A DNA stretch of 47,611 bases from Escherichia phage vB_EcoS_swi2: sequence record NC_054649.1; one strand, written 5' to 3'. The translations under genes were made by a program, and so were the position numbers. Position 1 is the stretch's first letter, and each line of letters begins with the position of its first letter. Positions 1 to 47,611 of this stretch are shown here, piece by piece. The notes below the pieces were generated by a model. The model was given only the letters and a program-made list of their open reading frames with translations. It did not search any database and was not told the DNA's origin.

Positions 1-84
1 CGACAACAACAGCCACCAAAACAACAAAGCACACAAGGAGGTAATGAGACTCCGATGGACTTTGATGATTCAATACCATTTTGA
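1..84 (+). CDS. ssb: Single-stranded DNA-binding protein, C-terminal part (continuation of the ORF that begins at 47210)
   Basis: Frame 1 from base 1 reads RQQQPPKQQSTQGGNETPMDFDDSIPF then stop at 82-84; the acidic DDSIPF tail matches the E. coli SSB C-terminal tip; frame is continuous with 47210..47611. Confidence 0.7.
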   Translation, partial: RQQQPPKQQSTQGGNETPMDFDDSIPF

Positions 85-94
85 TGATAAAACT

Positions 95-118
95 AACCCC
101 GCATAAGCGGGGTTTTAT
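95..118. terminator. Rho-independent terminator hairpin downstream of the tailspike gene
   Basis: Stem ccccgc / gcgggg with ataa loop at 97-112, T-run on plus strand and T-rich flank on minus strand. Confidence 0.6.
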
Positions 119-119
119 A

Positions 120-2312
120 TTAAATTGTTGGGAAGTTTGTTGATAATGGTACTATTGCATATTCAAGTTTTGTTGGTGGTTGATTTGCCGAGCTGTATGT
201 TGAAAGAGCCTCAAGCACAATATACCCACTCCCGTTGTAGCCTGCTTTGAAGCAACTTTGCAGGTTTGCTATGGATGTGTCTCCGGGGTTTAGACGCTGG
301 TCAATAGGTGGTTTAAGGTCAGTTGCGTCGGCTCTTGATGTTGCATCATGAGCACCAGAAGACATGATATATGTAGCGTAGTTGTTTTTTATCCCACCGG
401 TTACTTTTATGTGGAGAAGGTAAAGTGAACGGTCAGATGTGGCCCCTGTTAATATCTGATGGTCAAGAGTAATTCTTATCTTTGAACCATCTGATACAGC
501 TGGTATAGTCTTGCTCAACATTGCTATGCCATTAACAGTATTATCATAACCATTGCCGATGTAGTTCCCTGAACCTACAAAAGCTGAGTTCATTCGCCAG
601 ATATCTTCTGCAGTAAATAACCCTGACGTAATGAAGTTACCTGTCCATACGTTTCTGTTTCTTTCTGGTCTGGCGTTAAGCACCATTCCTACTCCGCCAG
701 CCATAAAATTACCTGATATAACTGCCCCAGACATATCGGTCGGGTTAATACATTGCAACCTTAGAGACGTGTTTACGGCAGGGTCTAACACCATTTGCAT
801 TGTGTTACCGGTGATACTAATACCTGCGCACCATGTTCCGTTGAAACCATTGTTACTATTGTTGAGCGCCTGTGATGCTATAAAGTTAAATATCCTCTGA
901 TCTGATGGAATGCTCGCACCTTTGTAATAAAAAACATTATTAGATATGCTAACAAGTGATGTCCGTAAGAATATTGCAAAGTCATTTAACGGATTTTCTT
1001 CAAAATGAAATACGTTATTCGATATTGAAGATCTACCACCTAATCCGACGCGAGTGCTGCTATCAAATTGCATTGACATCATTTTAATGGCAGTGTTAAC
1101 AAAACGGTTTGATGTTAAAGATACTTCAAGACCACCAGTAAAAGTGTCAAATTCGCATGCACATTCCGTATTCCTGTTGCAGAAAAGATTGCCGTTAACA
1201 TTGCCGCCTATCGTAGTACCACCAACTTTACCCAAATCTGCATTAGGACCACTCTGCATAAAAACATCAAAGGTATTATTGGTCACATGGAACATTGACT
1301 TGCGAGGCGTCCCAATGTCGACGGATGCAGTCGTGTTTCCAAGAATCATCAGATATGGATATACCTCACCCTGTGCACCTGACATTCCTGCATCAGAAAT
1401 ATACTGGTCTGTGTTGTCATCAGTCTTGCAGTAGTTATTATCAACTGAGATATGTACGCTAGTTGGGTCCTGACAGTTAACCATGATGTAGCCAACACCG
1501 CAGTTAAAGCATTGCATATCTTTTAACACCACGCGCGTTGGCAAATTCGCCAGCCCATCAGGGTAATCATTGAAAATTACCTGAGGACGCTGGGTGTGGT
1601 ATGCATTTGCGGTGAACTTACCGCCGATAATCTCTACTGATTTTGCGCCAAGCGGATGGAAAATATAATCAATGCCATTGAAGGTAAATTCTCCAGCGGA
1701 AGCATCAATAATGATGTCTCCTGAGATGGTGACGGGGGTTGTTACGTCATACACGCCTGATGCGACAAGTCTTGTTTTGTTTGCCACCGCATAATTTACA
1801 GCTGCCTGTAATTTTTCTGACGCATTACCTCCGGGGAATACCTCTGGGACAACCCATTTGATGGCGTCCTGTACCGTGCCATATGGCATAATCCCAACAA
1901 GATCTGCGCCAGTCGTGTTTGCTAACTGTGTTCTCAAAGCTGCATCACCAACACTAACCCAGGAACCAACACCAATACCACCAGCTGTTTCAGGTGTTGA
2001 ACCAGCGGTGACGATTTTTGGAAACTCCCCATCCCAGCGATAATATTCTCCGTTCGCTTCATAACGCAGGGTCTGATTGGGCAGCGTCAGCGTCGCACCA
2101 TCTTCGAAGCTGTCCATCGTAATGTAGCCATAGTTGCGGATGGCCTCTTCTGCGGTGTGTTGAAAGCCAGCAATTGTCCAGCGGCGTACACCGAATCTGT
2201 CGGTATAGTAATGCGCATCAGAGTTGACAACCTCGTCGATTTTTCCGGCATTGAACTTAAGGTCGCGTGGGTCTTCTGATGGAATTGGTTTATTAGTTGG
2301 TGTGGTGGCCAT
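120..2312 (-). CDS. Tailspike / tail fiber with parallel beta-helix (pectate-lyase-like) domain, probable polysaccharide depolymerase and receptor-binding protein
   Basis: 730 aa ORF at the distal end of the tail module; Asn/Gly-rich repeated segments (NNVF, SGNF, TGNT) typical of right-handed beta-helix tailspikes; terminator immediately downstream. Confidence 0.65.
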   Translation of the reverse strand: MATTPTNKPIPSEDPRDLKFNAGKIDEVVNSDAHYYTDRFGVRRWTIAGFQHTAEEAIRNYGYITMDSFEDGATLTLPNQTLRYEANGEYYRWDGEFPKIVTAGSTPETAGGIGVGSWVSVGDAALRTQLANTTGADLVGIMPYGTVQDAIKWVVPEVFPGGNASEKLQAAVNYAVANKTRLVASGVYDVTTPVTISGDIIIDASAGEFTFNGIDYIFHPLGAKSVEIIGGKFTANAYHTQRPQVIFNDYPDGLANLPTRVVLKDMQCFNCGVGYIMVNCQDPTSVHISVDNNYCKTDDNTDQYISDAGMSGAQGEVYPYLMILGNTTASVDIGTPRKSMFHVTNNTFDVFMQSGPNADLGKVGGTTIGGNVNGNLFCNRNTECACEFDTFTGGLEVSLTSNRFVNTAIKMMSMQFDSSTRVGLGGRSSISNNVFHFEENPLNDFAIFLRTSLVSISNNVFYYKGASIPSDQRIFNFIASQALNNSNNGFNGTWCAGISITGNTMQMVLDPAVNTSLRLQCINPTDMSGAVISGNFMAGGVGMVLNARPERNRNVWTGNFITSGLFTAEDIWRMNSAFVGSGNYIGNGYDNTVNGIAMLSKTIPAVSDGSKIRITLDHQILTGATSDRSLYLLHIKVTGGIKNNYATYIMSSGAHDATSRADATDLKPPIDQRLNPGDTSIANLQSCFKAGYNGSGYIVLEALSTYSSANQPPTKLEYAIVPLSTNFPTI

Positions 2313-7156: not shown

Positions 7157-7170
7157 GGGGCTTATTTTTC
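7146..7170. terminator. Bidirectional terminator hairpin between convergent genes
   Basis: agcccc gtaa ggggct hairpin followed by T-run; overlaps stop codon of the plus-strand gene. Confidence 0.6.
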
Positions 7171-9547
7171 ACTCTGTTGCTCTCCTGTTGGTATTAAAGT
7201 TTCTTGAGATAGATTGGCTCATCGGTCCGCCTTCATTCATATCGGATATAAATGTCTCAATAGTTATCGAGCCATCACCGTTATCAGTGGCTCTGCTTGT
7301 TGCGCTAGCATTGCTTGAATTATTGTAAACATTATTATAGACCACAACTCCGCCACCTCCACCGGAAATATCCTTATTGCTGATAACCTTTCCTGAGTTG
7401 CCAGGTATCATGTATTGCCTGCCTGTACTCGCCTGGAATATTTCTGGTGCATTTCCCTCGCCCACTTCGTACATACTTCCTGCACTAACAGGGCCACCAT
7501 TTTTTCGCTTGCCAGCAATTCCCATCGCCAGCGCCCCGAGAACAGCACCTACCCCAATTGCAGCCGCTCCACCGAAAGAACCGATTGATGCGACGATTGC
7601 CGCAGGAGTCCATGCTGCCGTTGTGGTGGCTGCCGCTGCAGTTGATGCTGCTGTTGTGGTTGCCAGTCCTGCCGTTTGCGCCGCTGTGGTGGTAGCTGTT
7701 GCCGCAACCTGCGCAGTCTGCCCCATAACGGCGGATTTAACCCACTGAACGCCCATTTCAACAAAGCTGTTTACCAGAGAATTCAGCACCGTAGAGCCGA
7801 GGCTGCGCATTGCATCCTGAACGCTCATTGTGCCTGTGAGCAATCCAGTGATGCTGTTTGATGCTGCACTCATCGCTGAATCAAGCGCCGTGCCGAACAA
7901 TTGCGCCCCGAGGCTTTGCTGCTGCCATTCAGCCCACATCGCATCCATTCTCTGCTGGCGATACTGCGCTTCAATTGCTGCGCGAGCCTGCTCAATCTCC
8001 GTGATTTTCTGCGGATATGCTGCGGCGTAGGCGTCAAGGTCAGCCATGCGTTGCTGGTATTCGCTATCAATGCCAGCCGTTGGCGACGCAATGGCGCGTA
8101 ATCCCTGATATGATTGTTCTACTCGCTGTCTTTCCTTCTCAGCTGCTGCCTGCTCCTTCAGTGCATTCTTCTGGTCCCAAATCTTGGCAGCGTACTCGCC
8201 AGCCAGTTTTATCTGCTCCTGAGTTGCCGACTTGCCAAGCGATTGCTGCGCGTTGAGGATGGCTTGCTCGCGGGATAGTTCGCTGGTAGATGTGGCATTG
8301 AGCATGGTTTGCTGGCGTAATTTCTCCAGCTTTTCAGCCACTGACTCAGCTTGCCGTTCTTCTGCACTTTTTCCTGTTGCTTTTTTCTTTTTCTCTTTCT
8401 CTGCTGCTTTTGGCACTGTCAAGTGCGCCTGCGCCTTTGCCGCTTCCCCTGTCGATTTGGTGACAGCATCCATATCCGCGACCAATGTGGCCGCCTGATT
8501 TGCTACCGCCGCTATGGCTTGATTCTGCGCAGCCCAACCATCAATTCCAATCCATGACCATGTTCTTGCTCTACGACTGAACATTTCTGCTGTTGATGTC
8601 AAATCAGAAATAACCTCTGCCGCACCTATGGTCTGACCAGTTAGTCTGTTGATTGCTGAGGTAATAGAGTCAATAACTGAAACAAAGGTAGAACTGGCTC
8701 CGGTTGCTTCGTTTATGCTTGCTATCATTTTTGCAAATGATGTTTCAAGACTGCCAGTCGCCTGAGATATAGAGCGCGGTAGCTTTGCGAACTCAGCATT
8801 GACGACACTCGTCCTGTCCTGAATGGCATTCAGTGCATCTTCTGCTGTCAGTTTGCCATCGAGCATTCTTGCGCGAAGTTCACCCATTGAAATGCCAAGA
8901 CCCGCCGCAATCTGGCGAGCAAGCTCAGGCATCTGTTCAAGGATGGAGTTAAATTCTTCGGCGCGGATTGTGCCAGATGCGATTGACTGACCGAACTGAC
9001 GTAATGCATTCGCCATTTCTTCAGTTGATGACCCACCTATTCGACCTATTTTTTGCAGGGTATCTGTAAGGTTCAGAACCTGCGCATTTGTCGCTCCAGC
9101 CTCTTTCAGTGATGACGTCAATGTTTCCCACAACTTCGTAGTGTCACTGAGGCTTGCGCCAGTGGTCGAGGCGATATTTGCCAGTGTGCTGAATGTTTCG
9201 TTCGCGGTTTTCGCATCAGTTGACAGGCGAGCAATCCTTGCCTGAAGCTGAGTCATGTTATCGGCAACCTCAAGGAATCGCTTTCCCCATTCGATAATCA
9301 GTGACACGGATATTGCGCCAGCCAGCATCGACATGCTGGTTTTAAGCCCTGAAGCTGCGCCGCCAGCATTCTTCATTCCGCTGCCAGCATTGCGCGCGCC
9401 TTTATCCAGCTTGTTGAACTCTCCTGTAGTCTTGTTTAGTGATGATTCAAGGTCATCTAAAGTCTTATTGGCTGTTGTCGCGCCAGCTTTCAGGCCTTTA
9501 ACATCCATCCCGACTTCATAGACAATTCCGCCGACTTCTTCAGCCAT
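7169..9547 (-). CDS. Tail tape measure protein
   Basis: 792 aa, Ala/Gln-rich predicted coiled-coil over most of length, Ala/Thr/Gly-rich hydrophobic segment near C-terminus, position between chaperone and minor tail genes. Confidence 0.8.
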   Translation of the reverse strand: MAEEVGGIVYEVGMDVKGLKAGATTANKTLDDLESSLNKTTGEFNKLDKGARNAGSGMKNAGGAASGLKTSMSMLAGAISVSLIIEWGKRFLEVADNMTQLQARIARLSTDAKTANETFSTLANIASTTGASLSDTTKLWETLTSSLKEAGATNAQVLNLTDTLQKIGRIGGSSTEEMANALRQFGQSIASGTIRAEEFNSILEQMPELARQIAAGLGISMGELRARMLDGKLTAEDALNAIQDRTSVVNAEFAKLPRSISQATGSLETSFAKMIASINEATGASSTFVSVIDSITSAINRLTGQTIGAAEVISDLTSTAEMFSRRARTWSWIGIDGWAAQNQAIAAVANQAATLVADMDAVTKSTGEAAKAQAHLTVPKAAEKEKKKKATGKSAEERQAESVAEKLEKLRQQTMLNATSTSELSREQAILNAQQSLGKSATQEQIKLAGEYAAKIWDQKNALKEQAAAEKERQRVEQSYQGLRAIASPTAGIDSEYQQRMADLDAYAAAYPQKITEIEQARAAIEAQYRQQRMDAMWAEWQQQSLGAQLFGTALDSAMSAASNSITGLLTGTMSVQDAMRSLGSTVLNSLVNSFVEMGVQWVKSAVMGQTAQVAATATTTAAQTAGLATTTAASTAAAATTTAAWTPAAIVASIGSFGGAAAIGVGAVLGALAMGIAGKRKNGGPVSAGSMYEVGEGNAPEIFQASTGRQYMIPGNSGKVISNKDISGGGGGVVVYNNVYNNSSNASATSRATDNGDGSITIETFISDMNEGGPMSQSISRNFNTNRRATE

Positions 9548-11876: not shown

Positions 11877-12344
11877 GTATTTCAGATAGTTTTCGTGAGC
11901 GACTTTGCGGACTTTTTAGAAACTGATCACAAAGATAAATGCAAACGAAGAAATGTATCTGGCCGTAGCTTAACAGCTAAACACAAGTGAGGTATTCCAG
12001 TTCCTCATCAACGAATCTTGCGCACTGGCCCGGTGTGATTAATAATGGGCACACAACGGAAAGAGCATTACTGGTGACGGAGACTAGCGATTAGCTATAT
12101 GCGAAAGTTCTAGAAGCCAAGGCGGTTCGACTCCGCAAGTGCTCTTTCCGGTGTGGTGAATGCGCAGGCTGATGCGCGCAGGAGAGCTTCGGAAGAACAA
12201 GGTGCCTGTATACAAGCCGGAGATCAGCACCGGCCACCACAATACTTAACATCCAGCATTATCGCAATCATATGTAGGGGTATGTATGGGTTACGGGGCT
12301 GGATGTTAAGAAAGCACGCTGGCAATGCTTAAACCAGCACTTAT

Positions 12345-12421
12345 GGACGCGTAGCTTAATTGGTTAAAGCAACCGACTCATAATCGGCTGATTGAAGGTT
12401 CAAATCCGTCCGTGTCCACCA
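12345..12421 (+). tRNA. tRNA-Met (anticodon CAT; could alternatively be Ile2-type)
   Basis: Acceptor GGACGCG pairs with CGTGTCC, D-stem GCTT/AAGC, anticodon loop CTCATAA, T-loop TTCAAAT, 3-prime CCA encoded; terminator follows. Confidence 0.75.
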
Positions 12422-19190: not shown

Positions 19191-19216
19191 AAAGGGGCTT
19201 TCGCCCCTTTTTTTAT
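19191..19216. terminator. Hairpin immediately downstream of major capsid gene
   Basis: ggggc tttc gcccc with 7-T run on plus strand; weaker T-tract on minus strand. Confidence 0.45.
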
Positions 19217-20286
19217 TACACCGGAGTTTGCGTGCCGTAGCCGTTGAACACTTTGGACTTGCCAGTGAAATCCTTGCGCACCTGAAGCCCCATAGCTGAC
19301 CACACGAGGAAGTTGAAGTTATCGTGCGGGTTGACACGGGCTGCCGCATAGGTGGAAACAGGCTGGGCAACGCGCGGACGGATGTACATGTCGTTGCGAA
19401 CATAGCCAACAAAGTGGTTACCAGTCAGCAGGAAGTTGGTGCCAATCTTGCCAATGCGACCGTTGCCGAACTGCGTGATGTACTGCTCAACCGTGCCGCC
19501 TTTGAATCCTGCTGCATTAGAATACGGACGCATGAAGCTACGGCGCACTGCCGGGGAGACCCACAGAGTCACCTGCTCAAATACGTTCTGCGCATCCAGA
19601 ATAGCCTGGAAATCCTGATTGAAGAAGGTCACTATTTCGTCTGGTGTTGCAGTTTGCAGGTCGATATTCAGGCCGCCAGAAGCATTCAGGTTAACCTGAA
19701 CAGTGTTCGGGTGGTTGGTGATACCGTAGCCGGTGTAAACGCCGTTCACGTTCAGAGTCTGGTCGCCAGTCAGCAGGTATTGCGCCATATCGGAACGCAG
19801 GTTAAAGGTGACGTTGGCCTGATCGTCCAGCAGTGGGTAAAAACCTTCAGACTGCATACCAAGCAGTTCGCGCCATTCGCGGCTGTAGCCAGTCTTGAAG
19901 ATTGGAATCACATCGCCAGTGTAATCGTAGCGAGTTTTATCCAAATCTTCCGGCTCCTGACCAGACAGAGTGCGAACAACCTTGCCAGCATCAGAAGCAA
20001 TGCGGCTGATTGCCACAGTCTTACCAATGTTGATGTTTGCCGCGATACCCATCAGGTCAGCCATCATGTCCTGACCGGCTTCATTGCGGAAAACGCGGGT
20101 GGTAACGTTATCCACGTCGCGCCAGTAATCTTTCGTCACCAGTGCGGTGGCGTTAACTCCATAGGTTTTCGCCAGTTCAGCTTCTGCATTGCAGAACACC
20201 TTGCGGTCGATGGTGAGATGTTTCCACTGATCAGCCACCACTGCGGAGTTGGCTACCAGGTCTTTGGTAAAAATAATCTTTTCCAT
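19216..20286 (-). CDS. Major capsid protein
   Basis: 356 aa ORF in scaffold-decoration-capsid order; hairpin immediately downstream. Confidence 0.6.
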   Translation of the reverse strand: MEKIIFTKDLVANSAVVADQWKHLTIDRKVFCNAEAELAKTYGVNATALVTKDYWRDVDNVTTRVFRNEAGQDMMADLMGIAANINIGKTVAISRIASDAGKVVRTLSGQEPEDLDKTRYDYTGDVIPIFKTGYSREWRELLGMQSEGFYPLLDDQANVTFNLRSDMAQYLLTGDQTLNVNGVYTGYGITNHPNTVQVNLNASGGLNIDLQTATPDEIVTFFNQDFQAILDAQNVFEQVTLWVSPAVRRSFMRPYSNAAGFKGGTVEQYITQFGNGRIGKIGTNFLLTGNHFVGYVRNDMYIRPRVAQPVSTYAAARVNPHDNFNFLVWSAMGLQVRKDFTGKSKVFNGYGTQTPV

Positions 20287-29477: not shown

Positions 29478-29503
29478 AGCCCTCACTTAGAGGGCTTTTT
29501 GTT
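29478..29503. terminator. Bidirectional terminator hairpin
   Basis: agccctc actta gagggct followed by TTTTT. Confidence 0.55.
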
Positions 29504-30439
29504 TGCTGATTGCCACGCTTCTCGCTGCTTATCAAGCCTTTCCTGCGACGATTCCAGAATAACTGGCTTGCCATCCATTAATAACGCAGGGGTTTGTGCA
29601 CAATGGCAATTATATCTATTGCCATTCTCGCTATAAAACGTGTCAATCTCTTCTGGCGTGTAAAACCGTCCGTGACGAGCGGCGTGCGTCTGGCGAGTTG
29701 TACGCATTAATGCAGACTGCCACAGCATCACCGTCTCAATGCCTAATTCTTCGCGCGCCTCAATGACCTCTCGCCTGTTTGCCTGCCGAAGTGTTCCGGT
29801 GATTTCTGTCTGCGCAATCTGTTTTGCGTAGCTGTGGGAAACGTCAACTCGCTTAACAATGTCAGCTTCAACATCGCGAGGATTAGCGCCACGGGCAATG
29901 CCTTCCATAATGACAGACGCCAGTTGCTGACGGGAATAATCACTCAATCCGCGCCAGTCTGAGTAACCTTGCGTATAAGCCAGTTGCAGTCGATTCAGAT
30001 AAGGCTCACTGTAGAGTATCGCGGAAATCGGCCTTTGCTCGGCGTAAACCGGAGACAGGCTTGACAGTTCAGAGTTGGCCTTCTGCGTGCCTGCTTGATA
30101 CGCATCACCGATGAATACATTGGCCCACATCCTGCCGTGATCAAGATCATCACCTTCAAGAAGAATCTCGTCAATAAGTGCCTGCAACTCATCCATGAAA
30201 GTGGCAGCCCGCGCACTGCTGAAATCGTAGAAATACAGACCGCTTGATTCTGCGTTGGTCTGACCGTTCGGAATGGTGCGAAACAGCTCAAGTGCACGAG
30301 TCCTGAGCTGTTTGTATTTGCGCGTTATCACCTTATCCATCTTCGACAGGCGGGTTGCAGCGCCTAACGGGTCGGTCAGACTCTGCGATATGCGCGGTTG
30401 TGGTAGTCTTGCGTTAAACCGGAGTATCTTCATTTTCAT
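29483..30439 (-). CDS. Putative head morphogenesis protein
   Basis: Immediately downstream of portal gene and overlapping its 3-prime end; start at MKMK. Confidence 0.45.
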
Positions 30440-31826
30440 CTTCCGGCGGTGTGTCTTCGCGATAGCTTTCGTCAAGTTCAATCGGCTCCATACCAACCAT
30501 TCCGCGAGCCTCATCGACAGTCAGCAACGCAGATTGACCAGCATCAAAGAACGACTTGTTCGCAGTGGCGAGCTTGGACAGCAACTCCGCTTTATCCAGT
30601 TCTGAAGGCGCAAGCAGGTCATCCCACTTAACCTTGTAGCCATTTGCCGGGGCTTTATCGACAACACCAAACTGAATCATGCGCTCAACGAACATTGAGA
30701 TGACATAATCAACCCATGTTTCGCGGCGCTGCTTGGCTGTCATTGCCTCCTGCATCTTGTCTTCATCGCTCGCAAGGCGTCCGGTTTGCTGGCCAAAAAT
30801 GACGGTGAACGGAAGCGCCATTGATGCAGCGAACTGGTTGGCAGCAACTTCCCATGTGGGTTTTGGGTCGGCTGGCGTTACAGCAAGAACCTTAGCATCA
30901 GCCCCCATTGTGAACATAGCTGCGTCAATCCCGGAGTTCAGTGCCTCAATGTTCTCATTCATGATGTCGGTGAGTTCTTCGATATCGACACCCATTGACT
31001 GCGCAAGGCTTGCTGGTGTTACGTTATCCTTCGTGTAGTTTACCGCCAGTTGACGGCTGGCATTCTTCAGGAACCCTTCCGCTGAGCTACCGGAAACCTT
31101 AGCCATGTCGATAAGGCTATTGTAACCAGCGCGCAGCATTGGGATACCACTGAACATGCTGCCGTCAAAACTACCCTCAGCCAGAATGATGATGCGGTCA
31201 GGATGAATCTGCACTGAACGATCAGGCTTACCGTCGCTGTCGAAGTCTTCCACGGCGCTTTCCTGATATTCGTACATCTCAGGCATTCCGTAGTCTTCGC
31301 TGGTTTCATCGTTATTCCACGCACTGACTCGTAGTTGCTCCTCCCACACAGGAATAAAGCGAACGATGGATTTATCTTTAATACGTCTGGTTTTGGTGAT
31401 GTCAACAGGCTCGCTCCACTGGCGACCATCGCGGATTTGCAGGATAACGGCGGAATAGCGGTTGATGGCGTTACGCTTGTCAGCCTCCTTGATAAACGGA
31501 TAGGCTCGCTTCATCATGTCGTTGATGGACAATTCCCACGGCGTTGAATTCTTGTCATCCTCGCCATCTTCGACAACTTCAGGGTATTTCTGCCAGCATT
31601 TATTAATAATACGGTTAATGCCAGCGGCTGCGGCTGGGTGTCGCTCATAGGCGTAGCGGAACATCTCGGCGGTGATCTCCTGCGGGTAGCCGCATTCCGT
31701 CCAGAGTCTGTCGTGCTTCTGGTCGAGATTCTTCCCACCAGCACAAAGCCGTTGCTGCTGAAGCGCCCGGTTATTGTTCGCCACGCGGTCGCGTATATAG
31801 GCGTTTAATGCATCAATTTTGGACAT
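30414..31826 (-). CDS. Portal protein
   Basis: 470 aa ORF, acidic C-terminus, position between terminase and head morphogenesis genes. Confidence 0.55.
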
Positions 31827-34091: not shown

Positions 34092-34117
34092 GCCCTCGAA
34101 TGAGGGCTTTATTTTAT
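34090..34117. terminator. Bidirectional terminator hairpin
   Basis: agccctc gaat gagggct followed by TTTATTTTAT. Confidence 0.55.
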
Positions 34118-35538
34118 CGCCTGCGCCGGATTAGCATTCCACTACCGCGCTGAACTATATGGTCATTAAGTGCGTAACGAACCGCGTCCCAATAGTGGTT
34201 GTATGCATCAACAATATCAGTCAGCACATTCCCTGTCAGCTTATCAACTTTGTAGCTGTACATTACCGCCTCATTCTGCATCTCCTTGCATCGCTCATGA
34301 ATGATGATGCTGTCACAGCCACGCAGCCACGTTACACCATCCTCAACGCTTCCCGGCCATTTCGTGCACGGGTGGATATCGAATCCAGAACGCTTGATGT
34401 GACTGATGGTTTCAGGTCGAGCGCAGTCGGCATACCATCGTGCGCGCTTAGCCATCGGGAATGATTGCTCCATCGCAGCCGGTGTATCGGTAATCTCAAG
34501 CCCCACCTTGCCGTACTCGCGATTAATATAAATGTTGCGCCGCCCACCTGGTAACTCCTCGATGTAAACCTCAACCATCGCGGTAGGGTCCGTGCTGAAT
34601 CCGAAGTCCATCCCGAAATATGGGCCATGCCATTCAGGTTTGACCTCGAAGTTATCAATTCGCCACTTGCCGCCGAAGACCTGTTCGTCGCTACGCTTGT
34701 TGAACTTGCCTTCCCATATCCACATGTAGCGGTCGAAATCGACGCGCTTCATTTGCTCCATAGCGGATGGCAACGGCGTATCCCAGAACCACGGGTTGTC
34801 TGAATAGTTACATTCGATAATCAGAATTTCATCATTTTCGAAGATGCCATCAACCATCTGTGAGTGATAGGGGGCAATCCAGTTTTTCCATGTGGGGTCT
34901 GTTTCCTTGTTTGGGTTGAATGAGCACCACAGTTCGGAATTGGCAGCACGGATGGTAGGCACAAGAATATCCCAGCTTGTCTGGCTGACGTTCTCTGCTT
35001 CCTCTACCCAACCGACGGTAATCCCAGCAAAACCCTTAACTGTAGTCTGATTGCGATACAACCCCTTAAAGCGAAATTTGGCCTTAGTCTTTTTGTGTGT
35101 TATCTCGTTGTTGATAACGCGAAACTCTGCCGATTCACCCTTGCGGGCTATCTCATCAACAAGCTCCTGATAGCTTGAGTCTTCAATGGATTGCTGAATC
35201 TCACGAAAACAGGCAAAGCGGTCAGGGCGAAACCTTGCGCGCTCAGTGAGTATAGTGATAATCGTTCTTGTCTTGCCTGACCCGCGGCCACCGTAGATAA
35301 ACTTGAATCGTTTTGGGTAAAGCAGGCGCTCCAGTTTTGCGGGAATCAGGTGGTCAGCATGAGTGGTTGCATTTGTCACGTCATCAACGCCAGTGGCGGT
35401 CATCCTTAGCCGTTTGATGACGTTTTTCTGTATGTCGCAGATGCCAAAAATGGCTGACTCGGCGACATCTGTCATTTCATCATCAATCTGCGCTTCCAGC
35501 TTTTCGATTGCCAGCGCGGAGAGGCGTTTACGAGCCAT
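34114..35538 (-). CDS. Terminase large subunit
   Basis: Walker A YGGRGSGKT near N-terminus, 474 aa, position upstream of portal. Confidence 0.85.
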   Translation of the reverse strand: MARKRLSALAIEKLEAQIDDEMTDVAESAIFGICDIQKNVIKRLRMTATGVDDVTNATTHADHLIPAKLERLLYPKRFKFIYGGRGSGKTRTIITILTERARFRPDRFACFREIQQSIEDSSYQELVDEIARKGESAEFRVINNEITHKKTKAKFRFKGLYRNQTTVKGFAGITVGWVEEAENVSQTSWDILVPTIRAANSELWCSFNPNKETDPTWKNWIAPYHSQMVDGIFENDEILIIECNYSDNPWFWDTPLPSAMEQMKRVDFDRYMWIWEGKFNKRSDEQVFGGKWRIDNFEVKPEWHGPYFGMDFGFSTDPTAMVEVYIEELPGGRRNIYINREYGKVGLEITDTPAAMEQSFPMAKRARWYADCARPETISHIKRSGFDIHPCTKWPGSVEDGVTWLRGCDSIIIHERCKEMQNEAVMYSYKVDKLTGNVLTDIVDAYNHYWDAVRYALNDHIVQRGSGMLIRRRR

Positions 35539-35666: not shown

Positions 35667-36086
35667 TCATCCATTCTGCTGCTCCAGCAATTTCTCCAGT
35701 CGCTCAAGGCGCGCGGCGAGTTCGGTAACTTCGGCAATATCCAGTCCCGTCCTGATAACCTCAGCAAACGTTTTACCAATGTCCACAGGTATAACGCCAG
35801 CGGCTATGCCACGAATAACAGCATCAATCTTCTCGACTGGAGTTCCGTCATCAGGGAAATCCACCTCAAACACTGGTGCTACAGGCTTAGGCAGCGGACT
35901 GAATCGAACGATAAGCTCCTTCATCATTGACGTGTCACGCTCAATCATCGCCATCTCAACGATGGTGTCATAGAGCTTTTCCTCACTAAACCCCTTCCGC
36001 TCAAGAGCTTCAACGAGCAACTTGCGCTTATCTTTTCCGCGTTTATTTTGTGGTTGATTTTCTTTACTGAATAGCTTTTTAGCCAT
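35667..36086 (-). CDS. Putative terminase small subunit
   Basis: 139 aa basic N-terminus and C-terminal coiled-coil, immediately upstream of large subunit. Confidence 0.45.
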   Translation of the reverse strand: MAKKLFSKENQPQNKRGKDKRKLLVEALERKGFSEEKLYDTIVEMAMIERDTSMMKELIVRFSPLPKPVAPVFEVDFPDDGTPVEKIDAVIRGIAAGVIPVDIGKTFAEVIRTGLDIAEVTELAARLERLEKLLEQQNG

Positions 36087-38744: not shown

Positions 38745-38769
38745 TTTTACATCACAAAAGGAGGACTGA

Positions 38770-39048
38770 ATGTACCCAGATGGCACTAAATTAATGTTTG
38801 CATACGAGCTGTTATCTTCAATGAAATCTGGAGAACTGGTTGGTATTCACTTCGAGAATGAATACTCAAGCGAAATAATCAAAGGAGAAAAGGAAAATTG
38901 CTGTTGTGTAGTGATCGATGAAAAGTACCGCATGACGCACAACATGTTCAGGTCTTACTGCACCAGAATAGCCAATGAACAAGGTATGGTCATCAAAACA
39001 AAAACCAGTGAAAGCAAAAAATTCATGTATATCTGGAGAGTCCTCTGA
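38770..39048 (+). CDS. Hypothetical protein, first gene of rightward operon
   Basis: 92 aa ORF with strong RBS. Confidence 0.45.
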   Translation: MYPDGTKLMFAYELLSSMKSGELVGIHFENEYSSEIIKGEKENCCCVVIDEKYRMTHNMFRSYCTRIANEQGMVIKTKTSESKKFMYIWRVL

Positions 39049-40676
39049 TGACTGATTCAAAGCAAATCATTGAACTAAAGGAATCTCTTAAGCCAACAGG
39101 TAAGCCTGATTCTGGAAATCCACTTGATGAAATTGACGTGCCAGAATTCCGTGAAGGATACAAAATTCCTCCTGGCTCTCTTGGTGAATTCATGTGCGAG
39201 ATAGAGAATCATTTTGAAAATCGCGAAGAAGGAGAGGTATACCGATTGCCGGGTGCTATCGCGCTTGCTCAGGTGATGGCTGGCAGATACATCATTGGCC
39301 CAAGCGCAAAAAACAAGTGTGCGACGGGGACATTTATTGTTGGTCGATCTGGCGCAGGTAAGGGTGCTCCATCTGATTTTGTTAAGGCTTACGCAGAGAA
39401 TCTTGGAATAACTCCTCGCGTATCAAAAAGCACCGTAACATCATTGCGACAAATCAAAGAACGACTAATTGAGGCTGATGGTTTCTTGCTTTATATCGCA
39501 GATGATTGTCCTGAACACCTTCAGGCTTGGTCAGATACGCGCTCACCGCTTGGTGAAACAGCTTCATGGTTCAGGACGTCGATTAGTGGTGACTGGTTCC
39601 CTGAGTCTCCTGTCGTTACATTGTTTCAGGAGAAGCTGGCTAGTGCTCAAAACCCGAAGTTAATACTCTCTGCTGCGCAGGCTCAGGGGTGGATGATACC
39701 TCGCATAGGTGAATCTGATGGCGCTATAGATTATCGCAGACTTGCGAAAATGAACCATGATATTGGAAGAAGATTAAATCACGCCATGCAATGTTATGAC
39801 CTGTGCATTAACGAGAAGGGAATACAGAACGTAAGGTTCATTCCTTTCATAACTGTTACCCCAGAACAGGGGATTGCAACAGTAAGGAGATGGGAAAAGG
39901 ATGGCGGCATGGGCAGATCTCTTTTCATTAAAGGCCATGAACACATGCCAGAACTTAAGAATACTCCTGACATGGAAATCAATAAAACAATAATAAACGA
40001 ATGGAAACCAAGAATTCCAGGTGGATTCTTTAATGTGGAATATGCAAATGATGGCGTTTCGAAATACTATGAGATGTTGCGCAGGCGCATAGATAAGTCA
40101 AGCAACATTCCCGGTGTAATTGGTAGCGTCGGCCCTCGCTCTGCTCAGATGGTTATTGAGCTTGCGACTCTTTGCGCTTTTGCTGACTTATCATCGCGCA
40201 ATGGCATGACTCCGCAGATAAGGGAATGCCATATTGAATGGGCGTATGCAACAGTAATGAACAGCATGTACGATCTGCGTGATTATCTGGAGGGAGAAGC
40301 AGAGTTTGACGGACTTGAAAACACTGAGTGGGACAACATTGTTATGAAGGTTAAAAAATGCATTGAATCAAAGGCTTTCGCTGAAAAGCCTTATATTTCA
40401 GTGGTAAAAAACAAACTTTGTCGCGACAGAATCAGTAAGATAATTTCCGCCGCCGATTCAAACTCAATTCAGGTTACGCCGGATAAATTTACTTACGAGG
40501 TCATCATTGCCATCTCTGAAAACAGGCATTCACCAATAGAGCTTGACCCAGAAAATCCATCCAATATCCGGCTTTCTGGTGGCGGTTCATGGTCTGGGTT
40601 GCGGATGAACTCATCAGTCAGGAATATCCTGTCATCAGCAATGAAGCGAATGAGATTTATGAGGAACTTGAAATGA
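39048..40676 (+). CDS. P-loop NTPase, putative replication initiator or helicase-type protein
   Basis: 542 aa; Walker A-like GRSGAGKG; located next to putative origin and primase. Confidence 0.45.
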   Translation: MTDSKQIIELKESLKPTGKPDSGNPLDEIDVPEFREGYKIPPGSLGEFMCEIENHFENREEGEVYRLPGAIALAQVMAGRYIIGPSAKNKCATGTFIVGRSGAGKGAPSDFVKAYAENLGITPRVSKSTVTSLRQIKERLIEADGFLLYIADDCPEHLQAWSDTRSPLGETASWFRTSISGDWFPESPVVTLFQEKLASAQNPKLILSAAQAQGWMIPRIGESDGAIDYRRLAKMNHDIGRRLNHAMQCYDLCINEKGIQNVRFIPFITVTPEQGIATVRRWEKDGGMGRSLFIKGHEHMPELKNTPDMEINKTIINEWKPRIPGGFFNVEYANDGVSKYYEMLRRRIDKSSNIPGVIGSVGPRSAQMVIELATLCAFADLSSRNGMTPQIRECHIEWAYATVMNSMYDLRDYLEGEAEFDGLENTEWDNIVMKVKKCIESKAFAEKPYISVVKNKLCRDRISKIISAADSNSIQVTPDKFTYEVIIAISENRHSPIELDPENPSNIRLSGGGSWSGLRMNSSVRNILSSAMKRMRFMRNLK

Positions 40677-41934: not shown

Positions 41935-41946
41935 AAAATCTTCCTG

Positions 41947-41975: not shown

Positions 41976-41981
41976 ACTCAC

Positions 41982-42026
41982 ATGAAACAATCAATCGTTA
42001 CTTGCAATGAAACAATTAATCGTTAC
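41982..42026 (+). repeat. Tandem 20-bp direct repeat ATGAAACAAT(C/T)AATCGTTAC x2
   Basis: Copies at 41982-42001 and 42007-42026, 19/20 identical, 5 nt apart, immediately downstream of promoter. Confidence 0.7.
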
Positions 42027-42041
42027 AATAGAGGATAAGAA

Positions 42042-42194
42042 ATGGCTATCACCGTTAAGAAGTGCGAGGTTTGCGGAAATGAGTTTATCGGAACTGCAAA
42101 AGCAAAATGTTGCTCAGGAAAGTGCAGATTGCGCAAGCACAGACAGAAGAAAAACCCAATTCATAACTCAAAAACAGATAATGGAATATCTTGA
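42042..42194 (+). CDS. Small zinc-ribbon protein
   Basis: 50 aa ORF with C-x2-C ... CC-x3-C; GAGGA RBS; overlaps HNH start. Confidence 0.35.
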   Translation: MAITVKKCEVCGNEFIGTAKAKCCSGKCRLRKHRQKKNPIHNSKTDNGIS

Positions 42195-42654
42195 ATATAA
42201 CCCTGAGACTGGTGTTTTTACAGCTGCAAAAACACATGGAACACTCTGGCGTAAAGGCAAGATTGTTGGGCATAAGAATAAGGCAGGGTACATCACCATC
42301 ACGCTACTGGGAAAACTAAGGAAAGCTCACAGGCTGGCATGGATTTATGTTTATGGAGAAGATATAGATGGGTATGAAATAGACCATATAAATGGTGACA
42401 AATCAGACAATAGAATTTGCAACCTTAGGATTTCTAGTCACCAACAAAACATGTTCAACATGAAAAAGAAATCAACAAATAAATCTGGTGTAAAAGGTGT
42501 GCATTTCGATAAAGGGTGCAACAAATGGAGAGCGCAGACATCAATAAACAAGAAGAGGGTTCATCTTGGTTTGTTTGACACCATAGAATCAGCAGAAAAG
42601 GCGATTCGTGAATTCATGGTTGCTAACCATAAAGAGTTTATTAATTTAGGGTGA
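42181..42654 (+). CDS. HNH homing endonuclease with AP2 domain (paralog of 12995..13486)
   Basis: AHRLAW...EIDHINGDKSDNRICNLR and SGVKGVHF...NKWRAQ motifs; track ORF starts upstream at 42007 without RBS, so internal ATG preferred. Confidence 0.75.
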   Translation: MEYLEYNPETGVFTAAKTHGTLWRKGKIVGHKNKAGYITITLLGKLRKAHRLAWIYVYGEDIDGYEIDHINGDKSDNRICNLRISSHQQNMFNMKKKSTNKSGVKGVHFDKGCNKWRAQTSINKKRVHLGLFDTIESAEKAIREFMVANHKEFINLG

Positions 42655-42657
42655 GTT

Positions 42658-44580
42658 ATGCATAAGATAGACAAAATGATTTCAGAGATTGACATTAACT
42701 TGCTGAAATCCTGCTTGGATACTGGTGATATCGAGCCAAGACCATATCAGTGGTTGATATATAAGTTAACTGGTGATGTGATCCGCCATTATGTTGGTCC
42801 AAGCTATGTAACAGCAAGCGTCGGTAGCGGAAAGTCACTGATGATTGCCATGATAGCAAAGCGTTTTCAGGAAATGGGATATTCAGGGATGATTTTATCA
42901 AGACAGGGCGAAATAGTGGAGCAGGATGCGGAAGAGCTATGGTCGTTTGGTGTTAGAAACTCGCTATTCAGTGCTTCGTTAGGTAGGAAAAGTTCTACGT
43001 ACCCAATAATCTGTGGTTCTGAGGGTACTGTTGTAAATGCTTTGTTTGATAAAAAGGATGGGTCAGGGAATGTTATTGCAAAAGGTGTGCTCTCTGACTT
43101 TTGCCCAAGATTCCTGCTGATCGATGAAAATCATATGGTTAATGACATTGATGTTGTTAATAATGGTGATACGCAGTATGCAGTGATAATTAATGAGCTA
43201 ATGAAAAGGTGCAAAGATAAGCACGGCCATGAGTTGAGAATAATAGGTTATACAGGCTCACCGTTTCGCGGAACTACATCAATAAAAGGCGCTTTCTGGA
43301 AGAAAGAGATTATCAACATAGACACCAAGTACATGGTTGAAAACGGTTTTCTTGTACCAACAATTTTTGGTCTTCATGATGTTGATAGTCTGCATTATGA
43401 CCTTTCAGATTTTCATGGTTCAGATGTTGATGGTACTCAGGACTTTACCGCCGAGCAGCTCAAGCAGATGCAGAAAGAAATTCTTGAGCAAGGTACGTTG
43501 ACGCAGAAAATCATGCTCAAGGTTATGGAATTGACTAAAAACAGGAACGGAGTGCTAATTACATGTGCTGGTAAAAAGCATTGCCAGGAGGCGGCAAAGT
43601 ATTTGCCTGAAGGAAGTTATTCAATAGTTACAGAAGATATGGGGTCAAAAGCCAGAAGGAAGGCTCTAAAAGATGCATACACCGGGCGCAAAAAATTCAC
43701 ATTCCAGATAGCTGCCCTTACCACTGGCGTAAATATACCGTTATGGGATACGAGCTGCATATTGCGAAAAATAATGTCACTCACTCTTCTTGTTCAGTTG
43801 CTTGGTCGCGGGATGCGCCTGCTGAAGAAAGAGCAAATTGATGCCGGGTATCATAAAGAGGACCATCTGGTTCTTGATTTCTCTGGCACGATGTTTGAGC
43901 TTGGTCAGCTATATGAAGACCCAATCCTTGAAGAGGCTGAAGCGCAACGTTCAAAACGCAGTGGTGAACAAGTTCCGTGCCCGAAATGCGGAACAATGAA
44001 CAGCCCATATGCGCGCCGCTGCATTGGCAAAGATGCATTGTCGCCAGATGGTAGATGCGAAGAGTTTTTCAGTTATATCCGTTGCGGTTTCGACAAACAT
44101 GGCATCCGTATTTTTGATGATGGATGCGGCACTAAAAACGACCCCACTGCGCGTTATTGCCGACATTGCGATCATGTTTTGCGCGACCCGAATGCGGCAC
44201 TTAATGAGCGTGCGTATACAGATAATGAGTGGGCTGATGTTATGGATTTCAAAGTCCAGTTAACGAAGGATGGAGAAGGTATTTTGTATCGCTACTGGAT
44301 TAATCGTTGTGATGGCAAAGAAGGCTGGGCTAACGAAGTTTTCTACCCTTATGGCGGCGCAACTCACATGAAAAACATGTTTAAGGCAAAGGCGGTCTTT
44401 CCTCACCTTGATGATAAGTCAATGGCGGGGAAGATCCTGAAATGCCAGAACGCCAAGCAATTCATGATGTATGCGGGATTGATTAAAGCGCCAAAACGCA
44501 TCACGCATCGAATTAATGATAAAGGTCGCGACATAATACACCGCAAAGAATTTAAAGGGGAACAAAGTGAAGCAGCTTGA
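42658..44580 (+). CDS. Superfamily 2 helicase with C-terminal zinc ribbons
   Basis: Walker A VGSGKSLM, DExH-like LLIDENHM, later motifs, Cys-rich C-terminal region. Confidence 0.7.
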   Translation: MHKIDKMISEIDINLLKSCLDTGDIEPRPYQWLIYKLTGDVIRHYVGPSYVTASVGSGKSLMIAMIAKRFQEMGYSGMILSRQGEIVEQDAEELWSFGVRNSLFSASLGRKSSTYPIICGSEGTVVNALFDKKDGSGNVIAKGVLSDFCPRFLLIDENHMVNDIDVVNNGDTQYAVIINELMKRCKDKHGHELRIIGYTGSPFRGTTSIKGAFWKKEIINIDTKYMVENGFLVPTIFGLHDVDSLHYDLSDFHGSDVDGTQDFTAEQLKQMQKEILEQGTLTQKIMLKVMELTKNRNGVLITCAGKKHCQEAAKYLPEGSYSIVTEDMGSKARRKALKDAYTGRKKFTFQIAALTTGVNIPLWDTSCILRKIMSLTLLVQLLGRGMRLLKKEQIDAGYHKEDHLVLDFSGTMFELGQLYEDPILEEAEAQRSKRSGEQVPCPKCGTMNSPYARRCIGKDALSPDGRCEEFFSYIRCGFDKHGIRIFDDGCGTKNDPTARYCRHCDHVLRDPNAALNERAYTDNEWADVMDFKVQLTKDGEGILYRYWINRCDGKEGWANEVFYPYGGATHMKNMFKAKAVFPHLDDKSMAGKILKCQNAKQFMMYAGLIKAPKRITHRINDKGRDIIHRKEFKGEQSEAA

Positions 44581-44983
44581 TAGCGGTATATGGGTATTTG
44601 ATAGCGGTTATCGCGGAGAATGCCCAAAAGAGGAGATCGACCAGATGGGTTACGGTACATGGATGCAACACCGTTTCCCTGATGTTCTGTGGTTTCACGT
44701 CCCGAATGAAACAGGAACATCCAGCCGCGTCCAGTTCGTACTGAAGCGCCAGAAGATGGGTGTTAAGACTGGAATAGGCGACAATGTGATAATGACGCCT
44801 GGAGTGAAGCACACTTGCGGAATGATTGAGGCAAAGCGCCGCGATAAAAGCAAAAGCAGAGTGAGCAAGGAGCAATCTACTGTATTAACTGAGATGTGCA
44901 GGCTTGGTCATTATGCCGCAATAGCTTATGGGCTTGATGAATTAAAAAAAGCTACTTTATTCTATTTTGGACTTGATGAATGA
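44567..44983 (+). CDS. VRR-NUC domain nuclease
   Basis: GTG start with AAAGGGG RBS; PD-(D/E)XK-like core with conserved Glu and Lys; adjacent to SF2 helicase. Confidence 0.6.
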   Translation: MKQLDSGIWVFDSGYRGECPKEEIDQMGYGTWMQHRFPDVLWFHVPNETGTSSRVQFVLKRQKMGVKTGIGDNVIMTPGVKHTCGMIEAKRRDKSKSRVSKEQSTVLTEMCRLGHYAAIAYGLDELKKATLFYFGLDE

Positions 44984-45001
44984 CGTAGATTGATGTAGAT
45001 T
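44973..45001 (+). promoter_or_regulatory. Sigma70-type promoter TTGATG-N17-TAGATT
   Basis: Two tandem TGA(C/T)GTAGATT motifs; -10 TAGATT 44996-45001. Confidence 0.45.
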
Positions 45002-45032
45002 CAATTACACAATGACAAGTGAGGTGATGAAG

Positions 45033-45209
45033 ATGGATATTGAGATTCCGGATAGTTTTGATGCTGAGTGGCAATGCGAAATGCTACGCAATCTTCTTGT
45101 TAAGTTAAACGAACTTGATGATGGAGGTTATGTTGTCAGCGATGGTTATTCATTGCTTGATGATGCAATGAAAATTGTCGAAGCGTTACGTGAATACAGT
45201 GGTGATTAA
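45033..45209 (+). CDS. Small acidic hypothetical protein
   Basis: ATG 45033 with GAGGTG RBS at correct spacing. Confidence 0.35.
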   Translation: MDIEIPDSFDAEWQCEMLRNLLVKLNELDDGGYVVSDGYSLLDDAMKIVEALREYSGD

Positions 45210-46148
45210 ATGAAAGTCTATTTCAATAATGAATTAACTAATGAGCAATACCACGCTGACACAGAGCACATCAACGGTTCTGGCCTGTGGAACATTTATG
45301 ACCGCTGCCCCGCAGCTTGGCGCTACAAAGACGAAGAAGATGAGCAGTCAAAAGCTCTTATCTTCGGAACCGGAAGCCATACGGCTCTACTTGAACCTGA
45401 GCGCTTTGATGCGGAATATGCTCGCATGCCAACCAAAGAAGATTTTGGTGATGACCTGCTTGTTACTGTAAGCGATATGAACTCATGGGCGAAAGAGCGC
45501 GGCATTAAAGGACTATCAGGGAAGTCGAAAGCTGAGGTGATCAAAATAATTCGTGCAACTGGCGAACCAGTGAAGATTTACGACGAAGAGCGTCTTATTG
45601 CTGAAATTAACGCCAATGGTCGCACTCTGTTAGAAGGTGATGATTATGACGTCATTCAGCAAATGCGTGCTGTAATTCACGCAAACAGCTATTACAGCAG
45701 CCTTCTTGCTGGTTCTTATGCTGAAGTATCAATCCTCGGTGAGCTTTACGGGGAAAAGGCAAAGGTTCGGTTTGACTGCCTGACAAAAGGTGGTGACATA
45801 ATTGACTACAAGACAGCGGTAAGCGCCAAGCCTGATGAGTTTTTCCGTCATGCTGCGCGACTTGGCTACTTTATGAAGATGGCGATGCAGCACGACATGT
45901 TTGTTGCGGCATACGGTCATGCGCCGCGTTCTGTAAACCTTTTAGTTCAGGAAAAGAAAGCGCCGTTTATTCCTGCGTTAATTCTCTTGACTGAAGAGCA
46001 ATTACGCATCGGTCGCATTCAGTTGAATGGTGCAATGGAAATTTACAAGGCGTGTAAAAAAGCCAATTCATGGCCGGGTTATTCAATGGGTAATCCTGTT
46101 ATCGAAATGGAAACGCCTGAGTGGTTCAAGAAACAGTTTAATTTATAA
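45210..46148 (+). CDS. PD-(D/E)XK family exonuclease (recombination exonuclease)
   Basis: 312 aa; D ... IIDYK catalytic-like motif; gene context with AAA_24 ATPase and SSB. Confidence 0.6.
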   Translation: MKVYFNNELTNEQYHADTEHINGSGLWNIYDRCPAAWRYKDEEDEQSKALIFGTGSHTALLEPERFDAEYARMPTKEDFGDDLLVTVSDMNSWAKERGIKGLSGKSKAEVIKIIRATGEPVKIYDEERLIAEINANGRTLLEGDDYDVIQQMRAVIHANSYYSSLLAGSYAEVSILGELYGEKAKVRFDCLTKGGDIIDYKTAVSAKPDEFFRHAARLGYFMKMAMQHDMFVAAYGHAPRSVNLLVQEKKAPFIPALILLTEEQLRIGRIQLNGAMEIYKACKKANSWPGYSMGNPVIEMETPEWFKKQFNL

Positions 46149-46165
46149 TTAATGAGGTGATGCAA

Positions 46166-47206
46166 ATGGGTATTCTCAATATCAAACCAGCAGAGCGTTC
46201 AGGTTCTCGTGTGGTCATCGGTATTTCAGGTCAGTCTGGTAGTGGTAAAACATATAGTGCACTTAAGCTGGCGCGAGGTATGGTTGATTCACCAGAGGAA
46301 ATCGGATTCCTTGATACTGAAAACGGTCGCGGTCGCCTGTACTCAAACATCCTTGATGGTAAATTCCTGCACGCTGATATGTATGCTCCATTCAGCCCGG
46401 CTCGCTACCGTCAGGCCATTGAAGAGTTTCAGGTTGCTGGCGTTAAGGTTCTTGTTATTGATTCTGGCTCGCACGAATGGGAAGGGGAAGGAAGTTGCAC
46501 GGAGATTGCTGAAAAGCCTCTTCTTAACGGTAAAAAGATGGCTGACTGGAAGCGCGCCAAAGCTGAACACAAGAAGTTCATGAACGCCATGCTACAAAGC
46601 AATATGCATATCATTGTCTGTCTTCGCGCTCGCCAGAAAACTGACTTCGCAAACCCGAAGGAGCCTGTATCACTTGGGTTGCAGCCAGTGTGCGAGAAAG
46701 ATTTCATGTTCGAGATGACCGTGAGCATGATGATGCACGATGGAGGCAAAATTCAGGAGTTCACCAAACTACCAGAAGAGCTACGTCCAATCTTCTTTGA
46801 GTCTGGTCGTGAAAGTGTTCGTCATGGATACATTGGCGAGGCTCACGGTCGCGGACTCATCAAATGGGTGGACTCTGGCGTTAAAGTTGACGAAGAATTT
46901 GAGTCATGGCGCTCACGACTTCAGCTTTCCGCCGCAAAAGGCATGGAAGGCCTGAAGGAAGAAGCAAAATCAATACCTGATAACCTGAAAGATAAAATTC
47001 GAGCAATCTGGCCTTCTCTGGCTGCTTCGGCCGCAGAATATGATCGCATTGAGTCTTTCATCAATGATGAGCAATTATCCCCTGTGGTAATAACTCCTCA
47101 GGATAATTTCAACCCTGCAAAACTGGCCAAACAGCAACCACAGCAGCCAGAACAGCAGGAAGAAACAAAAACCGAACATAAACCAACTCCAATTGAAGGA
47201 TTTTAA
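46166..47206 (+). CDS. AAA_24-type RecA-fold ATPase (putative recombination protein)
   Basis: Walker A GQSGSGKT, FLDTENG motif, GAGGTGA RBS before ATG 46166. Confidence 0.6.
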   Translation: MGILNIKPAERSGSRVVIGISGQSGSGKTYSALKLARGMVDSPEEIGFLDTENGRGRLYSNILDGKFLHADMYAPFSPARYRQAIEEFQVAGVKVLVIDSGSHEWEGEGSCTEIAEKPLLNGKKMADWKRAKAEHKKFMNAMLQSNMHIIVCLRARQKTDFANPKEPVSLGLQPVCEKDFMFEMTVSMMMHDGGKIQEFTKLPEELRPIFFESGRESVRHGYIGEAHGRGLIKWVDSGVKVDEEFESWRSRLQLSAAKGMEGLKEEAKSIPDNLKDKIRAIWPSLAASAAEYDRIESFINDEQLSPVVITPQDNFNPAKLAKQQPQQPEQQEETKTEHKPTPIEGF

Positions 47207-47209
47207 TAA

Positions 47210-47611
47210 ATGGCTCGCGGCGTAAATAAAGTAATTATTGTTGGCACTCTCGGAAACGACCCTGAAGTTAAATATTCAGCATCAGGCTCTGCAATTGCCA
47301 ACCTTTCTGTTGCAACATCTGATCAGTGGAAAGACAAGCAGACAGGAGAAAAGAAAGAGCAGACTGAATGGCATCGCGTGGTCATCTTTGGAAAACTTGC
47401 AGAAGTTGCCGGAGAATATCTTCGCAAAGGTTCACAGGTTTACATCGAAGGCCAGCTTCGAACTCGCAAGTGGACTGACAGCAACGGTGTGGACAAATAC
47501 ACCACTGAGATTGTCATTCCACAGATGGGCGGAGTTATGCAGATGCTTGGAGGTAAACGTGATGATTCTGGTCAGCAACAACCACGCCAGCAGTCAGGGC
47601 AACAACCGCAA
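47210..47611 (+). CDS. ssb: Single-stranded DNA-binding protein, N-terminal part (ORF runs off window end and continues at 1..84)
   Basis: [22 protein letters not shown]...[39 protein letters not shown] closely matches E. coli SSB OB-fold; no stop before window end. Confidence 0.85.

Follow-up and report, generated by a model that had tools for sequence, protein, structure and literature searches.

The sequence record of Escherichia phage vB_EcoS_swi2 (NC_054649.1; 47,611 bp, 46% G+C), which was analysed over its whole length and is called the window here, very probably holds a complete unit-length genome, namely a circular assembly that was opened at an arbitrary place inside the linker of ssb, the gene of the single-stranded DNA-binding protein (SSB), and the phage DNA that it represents would be a terminally redundant and permuted genome packaged by the headful mechanism. 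The closure of the map and headful packaging are both supported by comparison with related phages and by the type of terminase. The 5' part of ssb lies at the end of the window and its 3' part lies at the beginning, and the acidic tip PMDFDDSIPF stands at the C-terminus of the SSB only once the two ends are joined. The features on which the analysis draws are listed in Table 1.

Table 1. Features of the 47,611-bp window of phage vB_EcoS_swi2 and what their assignment is based on.
Feature	Coordinates	Strand	Basis or remark
ssb, 3' part	1..84	+	Codons 135-161: remaining linker, acidic tip PMDFDDSIPF, TGA stop at 82-84
Bidirectional intrinsic terminator between ssb (+) and tailspike (-)	95..114	.	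8-bp stem with 6 G-C pairs, T-runs on both strands
Tailspike, 730 aa, convergent with ssb, first gene across the junction	120..2312	-	Pfam Tail_spike_N; PHROG tail fiber/spike anchors
J-like tail protein, 824 aa	2352..4826	-	Profile searches
Tape measure protein	7169..9547	-	Profile searches
Major capsid protein	19216..20286	-	Profile searches
Mu-F-like head protein	29483..30514	-	Profile searches
Portal	30414..31826	-	Profile searches
Large terminase subunit (TerL)	34114..35538	-	Pfam Terminase_3 and Terminase_3C; sets the type of virion DNA end
Helicase	42658..44580	+	Profile searches
Exonuclease (exonuclease VIII-like), first gene of the recombination module	45210..46148	+	PHROG 412, E 4e-91; annotated as exonuclease in Akira and ASO78B
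Sak4-like/AAA_24 recombinase	46157..47206	+	Pfam AAA_24, E 6e-12; PHROG 1366, E 8e-83; Sak4-like PHROG 124, E 4e-9
ssb, 5' part	47210..47611	+	Codons 1-134: OB-fold DNA-binding domain, residues ~5-106, and start of the Q/P-rich disordered linker; Pfam SSB

When the reading frame at the end of the window was examined it was found to run from its ATG to ...QQSGQQPQ over 402 nt, or 134 codons, without meeting a stop, and its coordinates were exactly those that an earlier note on this DNA had given. An AAGGA ribosome-binding site stands 9-13 nt before its ATG, which lies 3 nt downstream of the stop codon of the recombinase gene. Since 402 is divisible by three, the ssb frame resumes as frame 1 at position 1, where it reads RQQQPPKQQSTQGGNETPMDFDDSIPF over 27 codons and then terminates, and the terminating TGA is followed by a further in-frame TGA and a TAA. 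The earlier note had described this continuation to DDSIPF and to the stop, and the peptides that it quoted are correct to the residue. The chance that a run of 27 codons stays open is about one quarter and therefore the continuation alone is not significant. The predicted identity of the joined 161-aa product as an SSB, however, is far beyond chance. Against Pfam the joined protein matched the SSB family (PF00436) with 132.1 bits and an E value of 1e-38, the cut-off being 26 bits, and the match took in residues 5-106 and profile positions 1-101 of 104. In tblastn it aligned in one piece, over residues 1-161, with the SSBs of phages ASO78B (UAW58767.1) and Akira (QBZ71415.1), which also have 161 aa each and are 96-97% identical to it over the full length, and residues 2-161 aligned with the solved enterobacterial-type SSB 7f2n with the tip included (PMDFDDSIPF in the phage and PMDFDDDIPF in 7f2n). 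At the DNA level, nucleotides 1-124 of the window matched the 3' end of ssb in ASO78B, Akira, S192, and C1. The earlier note had proposed that its reading would fall if the translated end-to-start join did not align with SSB proteins, and the join aligned with the Pfam family, with the SSBs of both phages, and with the solved structure. Because the length of the joined SSB is that of its relatives, the CAA/CAG-rich linker has not been collapsed.

The gene is thus intact, and its product is a phage SSB of the common bacterial type, built of an OB fold, a Q/P-rich linker, and an acidic tip. The OB fold is strongly conserved with that of the E. coli SSB structures 1eqq and 4mz9 and with 7f2n (E 1e-57 to 1e-60), and in the PDB alignment the segments SDQW, TEWH(RVV), VIFGK, and RKWTD are all identical to those in solved enterobacterial SSB chains. 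The W of SDQW, the WH of TEWH, the F of VIFGK, and the W of RKWTD stand for the ssDNA-contacting aromatic residues of E. coli SSB, W40, W54, F60, and W88, and for His55 of the tetramer interface, and all of these are conserved. The identity of about 70-80% in the OB domain to solved tetrameric SSBs suggests that the phage protein would be an ssDNA-binding homotetramer. The order of domains, which is OB fold, disordered linker, and PMDFDDxIPF tip, is the same in host-type SSB and in the SSB of the window. The two differ in that the phage protein has 161 aa whereas the enterobacterial host SSB has about 178 aa, in that the linker, which is G-rich in the host protein, is shorter and Q/P-rich in the phage protein, in that the tip reads DDSIPF and not DDDIPF, and in that this ssb, unlike that of the host, is phage-encoded and stands beside the gene of a Sak4-like annealase.

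That annealase gene is the middle one in an operon of exonuclease, Sak4-like annealase, and SSB, of which ssb is the last gene. The true start of the recombinase is probably the ATG at 46166. From the start listed in Table 1 the protein has 349 aa with an AAA_24 domain, as in phage Skate, where it is called an 'AAA domain protein', and in ASO78B and Akira a different allele with a 219-aa 'recombinase' is found in this place. Relative to ASO78B both this gene and the terminase region are mosaic. In phage HK620 the last six residues of SSB are needed for the stimulation of Sak4, and ssb usually lies next to sak4 (Hutinet et al. 2018, PMC5928155). The same synteny is found in the window, where the AAA_24/Sak4-like gene ends 3 nt before ssb. 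As in HK620, ssb adjoins a gene of the Sak4 family (core-only RecA-like, AAA_24) and the SSB carries an acidic C-terminal hexapeptide; unlike Sak4 of HK620, the annealase of the window is extended at its C-terminus by about 180 aa and its match to the Sak4 PHROG is weak (E 4e-9). By this analogy the C-terminal hexapeptide of the SSB may stimulate the adjacent Sak4-like annealase.

The module appears to have been lost from one related contig, IMGVR_UViG_2974775380_000001 (46,454 bp). In its segment 1223-1800 the homology to ssb starts only in the Q/P linker, and an in-frame TAA before this homology ends an unrelated 155-aa ORF that lies downstream of the helicase gene. It seems that the exonuclease/Sak4/ssb module was deleted from this genome and that a 3' remnant of about 35 codons of ssb and the terminator were left behind. 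The endpoint of the deletion lies about 45 nt upstream of the place where the window opens.

The surroundings of ssb are alike in ASO78B, Akira, and the window, with a recombinase gene, ssb, a bidirectional terminator, and a convergent tail fiber or tailspike gene, but in the records of the first two phages ssb lies in the interior (34245-34730 and 8030-8515, respectively) whereas here it lies astride the record ends. When a query of 1,212 nt, composed of 47000-47611 followed by 1-600, was searched against phage records, query positions 1..729 aligned as a single piece across the junction at 612|613 in the interior of dozens of related records. The base-level alignment is free of gaps at the junction both against ASO78B and against one IMG/VR contig. 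The 26-mer centred on the junction, with 13 nt from either end of the window, has an exact match in two other phage contigs in IMG/VR, and the 43-mer across the junction is absent from IMG/VR and JGI metagenome contigs. No overlap or repeat of at least 6 nt was found between the two ends of the window. In the whole-genome collinearity, which was computed against ASO78B alone, window 1933-34920 corresponds to 13680-44560 of ASO78B and window 36165-47611 corresponds to 48-11905, and after position 47611, which falls at 11905, the alignment continues with window position 2 at 11907. This alignment makes the window a clean circular permutation of ASO78B: nothing is missing or present twice where the ends meet. 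It also yields the complete circular gene order of ASO78B, which supports the earlier claim that the window carries the full gene complement.

The window belongs to a cluster of small enterobacterial siphoviruses around Skate, IME207, Vi II-E1, Akira, C1, ASO78B, and the BASEL phages Bas77-81, which are about 89-93% identical to it over 50-77% of the query, and no identical deposited record was found among the related phage records. Humolli et al. (2025, PMC11990801) described this cluster as 'Skatevirus and relatives', phages of 46-48 kb in which one enzymatic tailspike is encoded just downstream of the J-like central tail fiber gene. The window has this size, it is about 89-91% identical over 60-77% of the query to Skate, Bas77-81, IME207, E1, and others, it is collinear with ASO78B, and its tailspike gene stands directly after that of the 824-aa tail protein. 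From these comparisons the window is classed as a virulent, Skate-like (Jersey-related) enterobacterial siphophage.

Several differences from the relatives were seen along the map. Four ORF-bearing segments, 6215-7156 (+), 12995-13486 (+), 18086-18946 (-), and 42007-42654 (+), have no DNA counterpart in ASO78B and are probably mobile or accessory insertions; 12995..13486 matches the position of a homing endonuclease that is annotated in Akira, and at the place of 42007..42654 ASO78B has an HNH endonuclease. In a megablast search with 1-22611, eight phage records each had a best-matching place of 99% identity or more, compared to a whole-genome identity of about 90% to every relative, which suggests a short segment that may have been exchanged recently. 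A tRNA-Met gene (CAT) was found by ARAGORN at 12345-12421 (+), between the major tail and head-tail connector genes, and the Rfam tRNA model scored 63 bits over 12345..12418. The same slot holds a tRNA-Met in Akira and a tRNA-Ser plus a tRNA-Arg in ASO78B, and since the tRNAs of the window and Akira differ from those of ASO78B, the slot carries variable tRNA cargo. A tmRNA that ARAGORN reported at 12047..12421 is probably false, as the only Rfam support within it is for the tRNA at 12345..12418.

The type of virion DNA end was approached through the large terminase subunit. Its best solved match in the PDB is Sf6 gp2 (4idh, E 3e-43), and the nuclease domain of SPP1 G2P (2wbn) was matched with an E value of 1.5e-8, so that these two enzymes are the nearest relatives with a solved structure. 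P22, Sf6, and SPP1 are the classic headful, or pac, packagers, and in these characterised phages pac lies in or beside the small terminase gene. TerL of these headful systems belongs to the same Pfam family as that of the window, but the window phage is a siphovirus whose virion module is unrelated. No pac site was located in the window, and the small terminase candidate at 35667..36086 (-) gave no Pfam match by which to place it in a family. The N-terminal half of TerL and the putative small terminase have either no DNA identity or only 68% DNA identity to ASO78B. As TerL diverges from the ASO78B allele (68% identity over a portion of its gene), what is known of packaging in relatives can be carried over at the level of the family only. 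Such data were found for KlebP_265, a phage of the same cluster and proposed family, in which PhageTerm found no termini, and from this its authors deduced a terminally redundant, permuted genome (PMC11769527). KlebP_265 was the only close relative for which termini data were found, there being none in the papers on Skate, ASO78B, ZK22, and vB_CECAV_048, and more distant Guernseyvirinae-like phages have been predicted to use pac, or headful, packaging (PMC6776780; PMC9409062). From these data we infer that vB_EcoS_swi2 would package its DNA by the headful mechanism. The headful-type terminase, together with the lack of fixed ends in KlebP_265, supports the reading that the genome is circularly closed, terminally redundant, and permuted. 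Of the two alternatives in the earlier note, a circular permutation of a complete genome or a circular assembly of a terminally redundant one, the second is, by the terminase type and the PhageTerm result for KlebP_265, the better-supported physical picture. One further difference was seen in this region, namely that ASO78B has an HNH endonuclease gene between the two terminase genes which is absent in the window.

A different account of the circular map is that the ends of the virion DNA are fixed and carry an exact direct terminal repeat in the style of T7, T5, or N4, that this repeat lies elsewhere in the genome, and that it was collapsed by the assembler. A collapsed terminal repeat would also yield a circular assembly, so the map would still be circular and would still open at an arbitrary place in ssb, and short repeat regions near both ends of the Akira record were annotated by its depositors. 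We consider this account improbable, considering that TerL is a Terminase_3 protein and that the solved proteins nearest to it, Sf6 gp2 and SPP1 G2P, are both headful enzymes, that PhageTerm found KlebP_265 to be without fixed termini, and that the repeats of Akira correspond to the internal CCGGTAACT iteron cluster and not to a terminal duplication.

In the window this cluster consists of ten exact CCGGTAACT motifs in both orientations, all within 38314-38675 (about 360 bp); the chance expectation for the entire window is 0.09 copies. Degenerate copies are also present, so that the cluster extends over 38290-38685, and the copies are often adjacent 9-nt tandems. The cluster lies in a stretch of about 1.1 kb without long ORFs, upstream of a 92-aa ORF (38770..39048) and of a 542-aa primase-like ORF (39048..40676). 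The arrangement resembles an iteron or operator array and may mark the replication origin. The Akira record opens in the region homologous to this cluster, and it is there that its depositors marked short repeats.

The place of the opening was also compared with that in related records. Positions of ssb in these records are 618, 881, 8030, 10346, 14880, 28115, 34-36 kb, and 39059, which means that their openings are scattered. There is one record, that of Escherichia phage C1 (MH717097, Deseoctovirus), which belongs to the same cluster and has the same orientation and in which ssb is likewise split by the record ends; its depositors annotated the split gene with a misc_feature and described a circularly permuted genome. 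C1 opens 100 nt further upstream, at what is position 47512 of the window, and it is a different species with about 89-90% identity over about 65% of the genome. It could be argued from this that the ends of the window are real or preferred physical ends, such as a pac site or the start of a packaging series in the ssb linker, since two records of the cluster, the window and C1, open inside ssb within 100 nt of each other and several others, for example EI_sp1, SeSz-2, and ZBSTP8, open within 2 kb. However, ssb makes up about 1% of the genome and there are about 150 related records, and therefore one or two random openings inside ssb are to be expected. In addition, the openings of the other relatives are scattered over the entire map, the small terminase gene, which is the usual place of pac, is about 12 kb away, and no repeat or terminal overlap marks the site. 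That the ends are physical is for these reasons very unlikely. Just as little credence is given to the related proposal that the opening is not arbitrary because the ssb linker (47512-47611/1) is a preferred packaging start or a recombination hotspot of the cluster, which would fit the openings of C1 and of the relatives within 2 kb as well as the deletion endpoint of IMGVR_UViG_2974775380_000001 in the same linker.

That the window ends are not contiguous at all, and that an incomplete or mis-joined contig brought together two gene fragments whose frames are continuous by coincidence, is highly improbable and on the sequence comparisons effectively refuted: no identical independent assembly was found, as exact-product look-ups with the tailspike and exonuclease proteins gave no match, but homology runs without gaps through the junction to several independent genomes, the joined SSB has the length of its relatives and is about 97% identical to them, the circular gene order of ASO78B is fully recovered, and 47,611 bp is within the range of 45-48.6 kb of the relatives. 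A prophage or a plasmid-like circular replicon was rejected, given that the related siphophages are virulent and given the collinearity of the window with the virulent phage ASO78B, among whose listed features there is no integrase.

Across the junction the map continues as it does in the relatives. The order of ssb, terminator, and tail fiber gene is also that of Akira and ASO78B. The RNA fold of the terminator has -15.4 kcal/mol with z = -4.1, and in ASO78B terminators are annotated on both strands at the homologous position. When the receptor-binding part of the tailspike (residues 127-730; 120-1934) was searched by tblastn against 50,697 phage records no homologue was found, the only match of the protein being a 56-residue match of the anchor, and no homologue of the receptor-binding part was found in the PDB. 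In 6 of 5,426 E. coli genomes, however, this part matched the DNA of prophage tailspikes. In E. coli E62, M9, and M6 these are tailspikes with a 'phage head-binding domain' (P22-type) and with 86-90% DNA identity over 99% of the length, and in three further E. coli genomes the DNA identity was about 73%. This points to a receptor-binding module that a virulent siphovirus and temperate prophages of podovirus-like type may have exchanged, and it also points to E. coli of matching O-type as the likely host.

How a headful-packaged genome would come to be recorded with a split ssb can be explained as follows. A terminase of the P22/Sf6/SPP1 type would start at a pac site on a concatemer and would then cut by headful measurement, and the virion DNA would be linear, above unit length, terminally redundant, and circularly permuted. 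Reads from such a permuted population would assemble as a circle, and no gene would be truly interrupted. After injection the redundant ends would recombine and thereby restore the circle, and the exonuclease/annealase/SSB module would be a plausible agent of this. P22 Erf and lambda Red are analogues for recombining redundant ends into a circle. The acidic tip of the SSB would probably recruit the adjacent Sak4-like annealase, by analogy with HK620.

The split ssb is very probably an artefact of bookkeeping, which arose when a headful-packaged genome was written as a linear string. The phenomenon is already well known and no new feature is involved; that genes span contig extremities once circular assemblies are trimmed has been described explicitly (PMC9409062). 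What is known of SSBs and of phage packaging is therefore left unchanged by it. A linear annotation of the record, however, misses or truncates ssb, as it leaves a fragment of 134 codons without a stop and without the functionally critical acidic tip, and it is best to handle the record as a circle or to open it at another place, such as upstream of the small terminase gene. Since the window holds the full gene set, the absences of an integrase and of a DNA polymerase are real properties of this phage and not edge effects.
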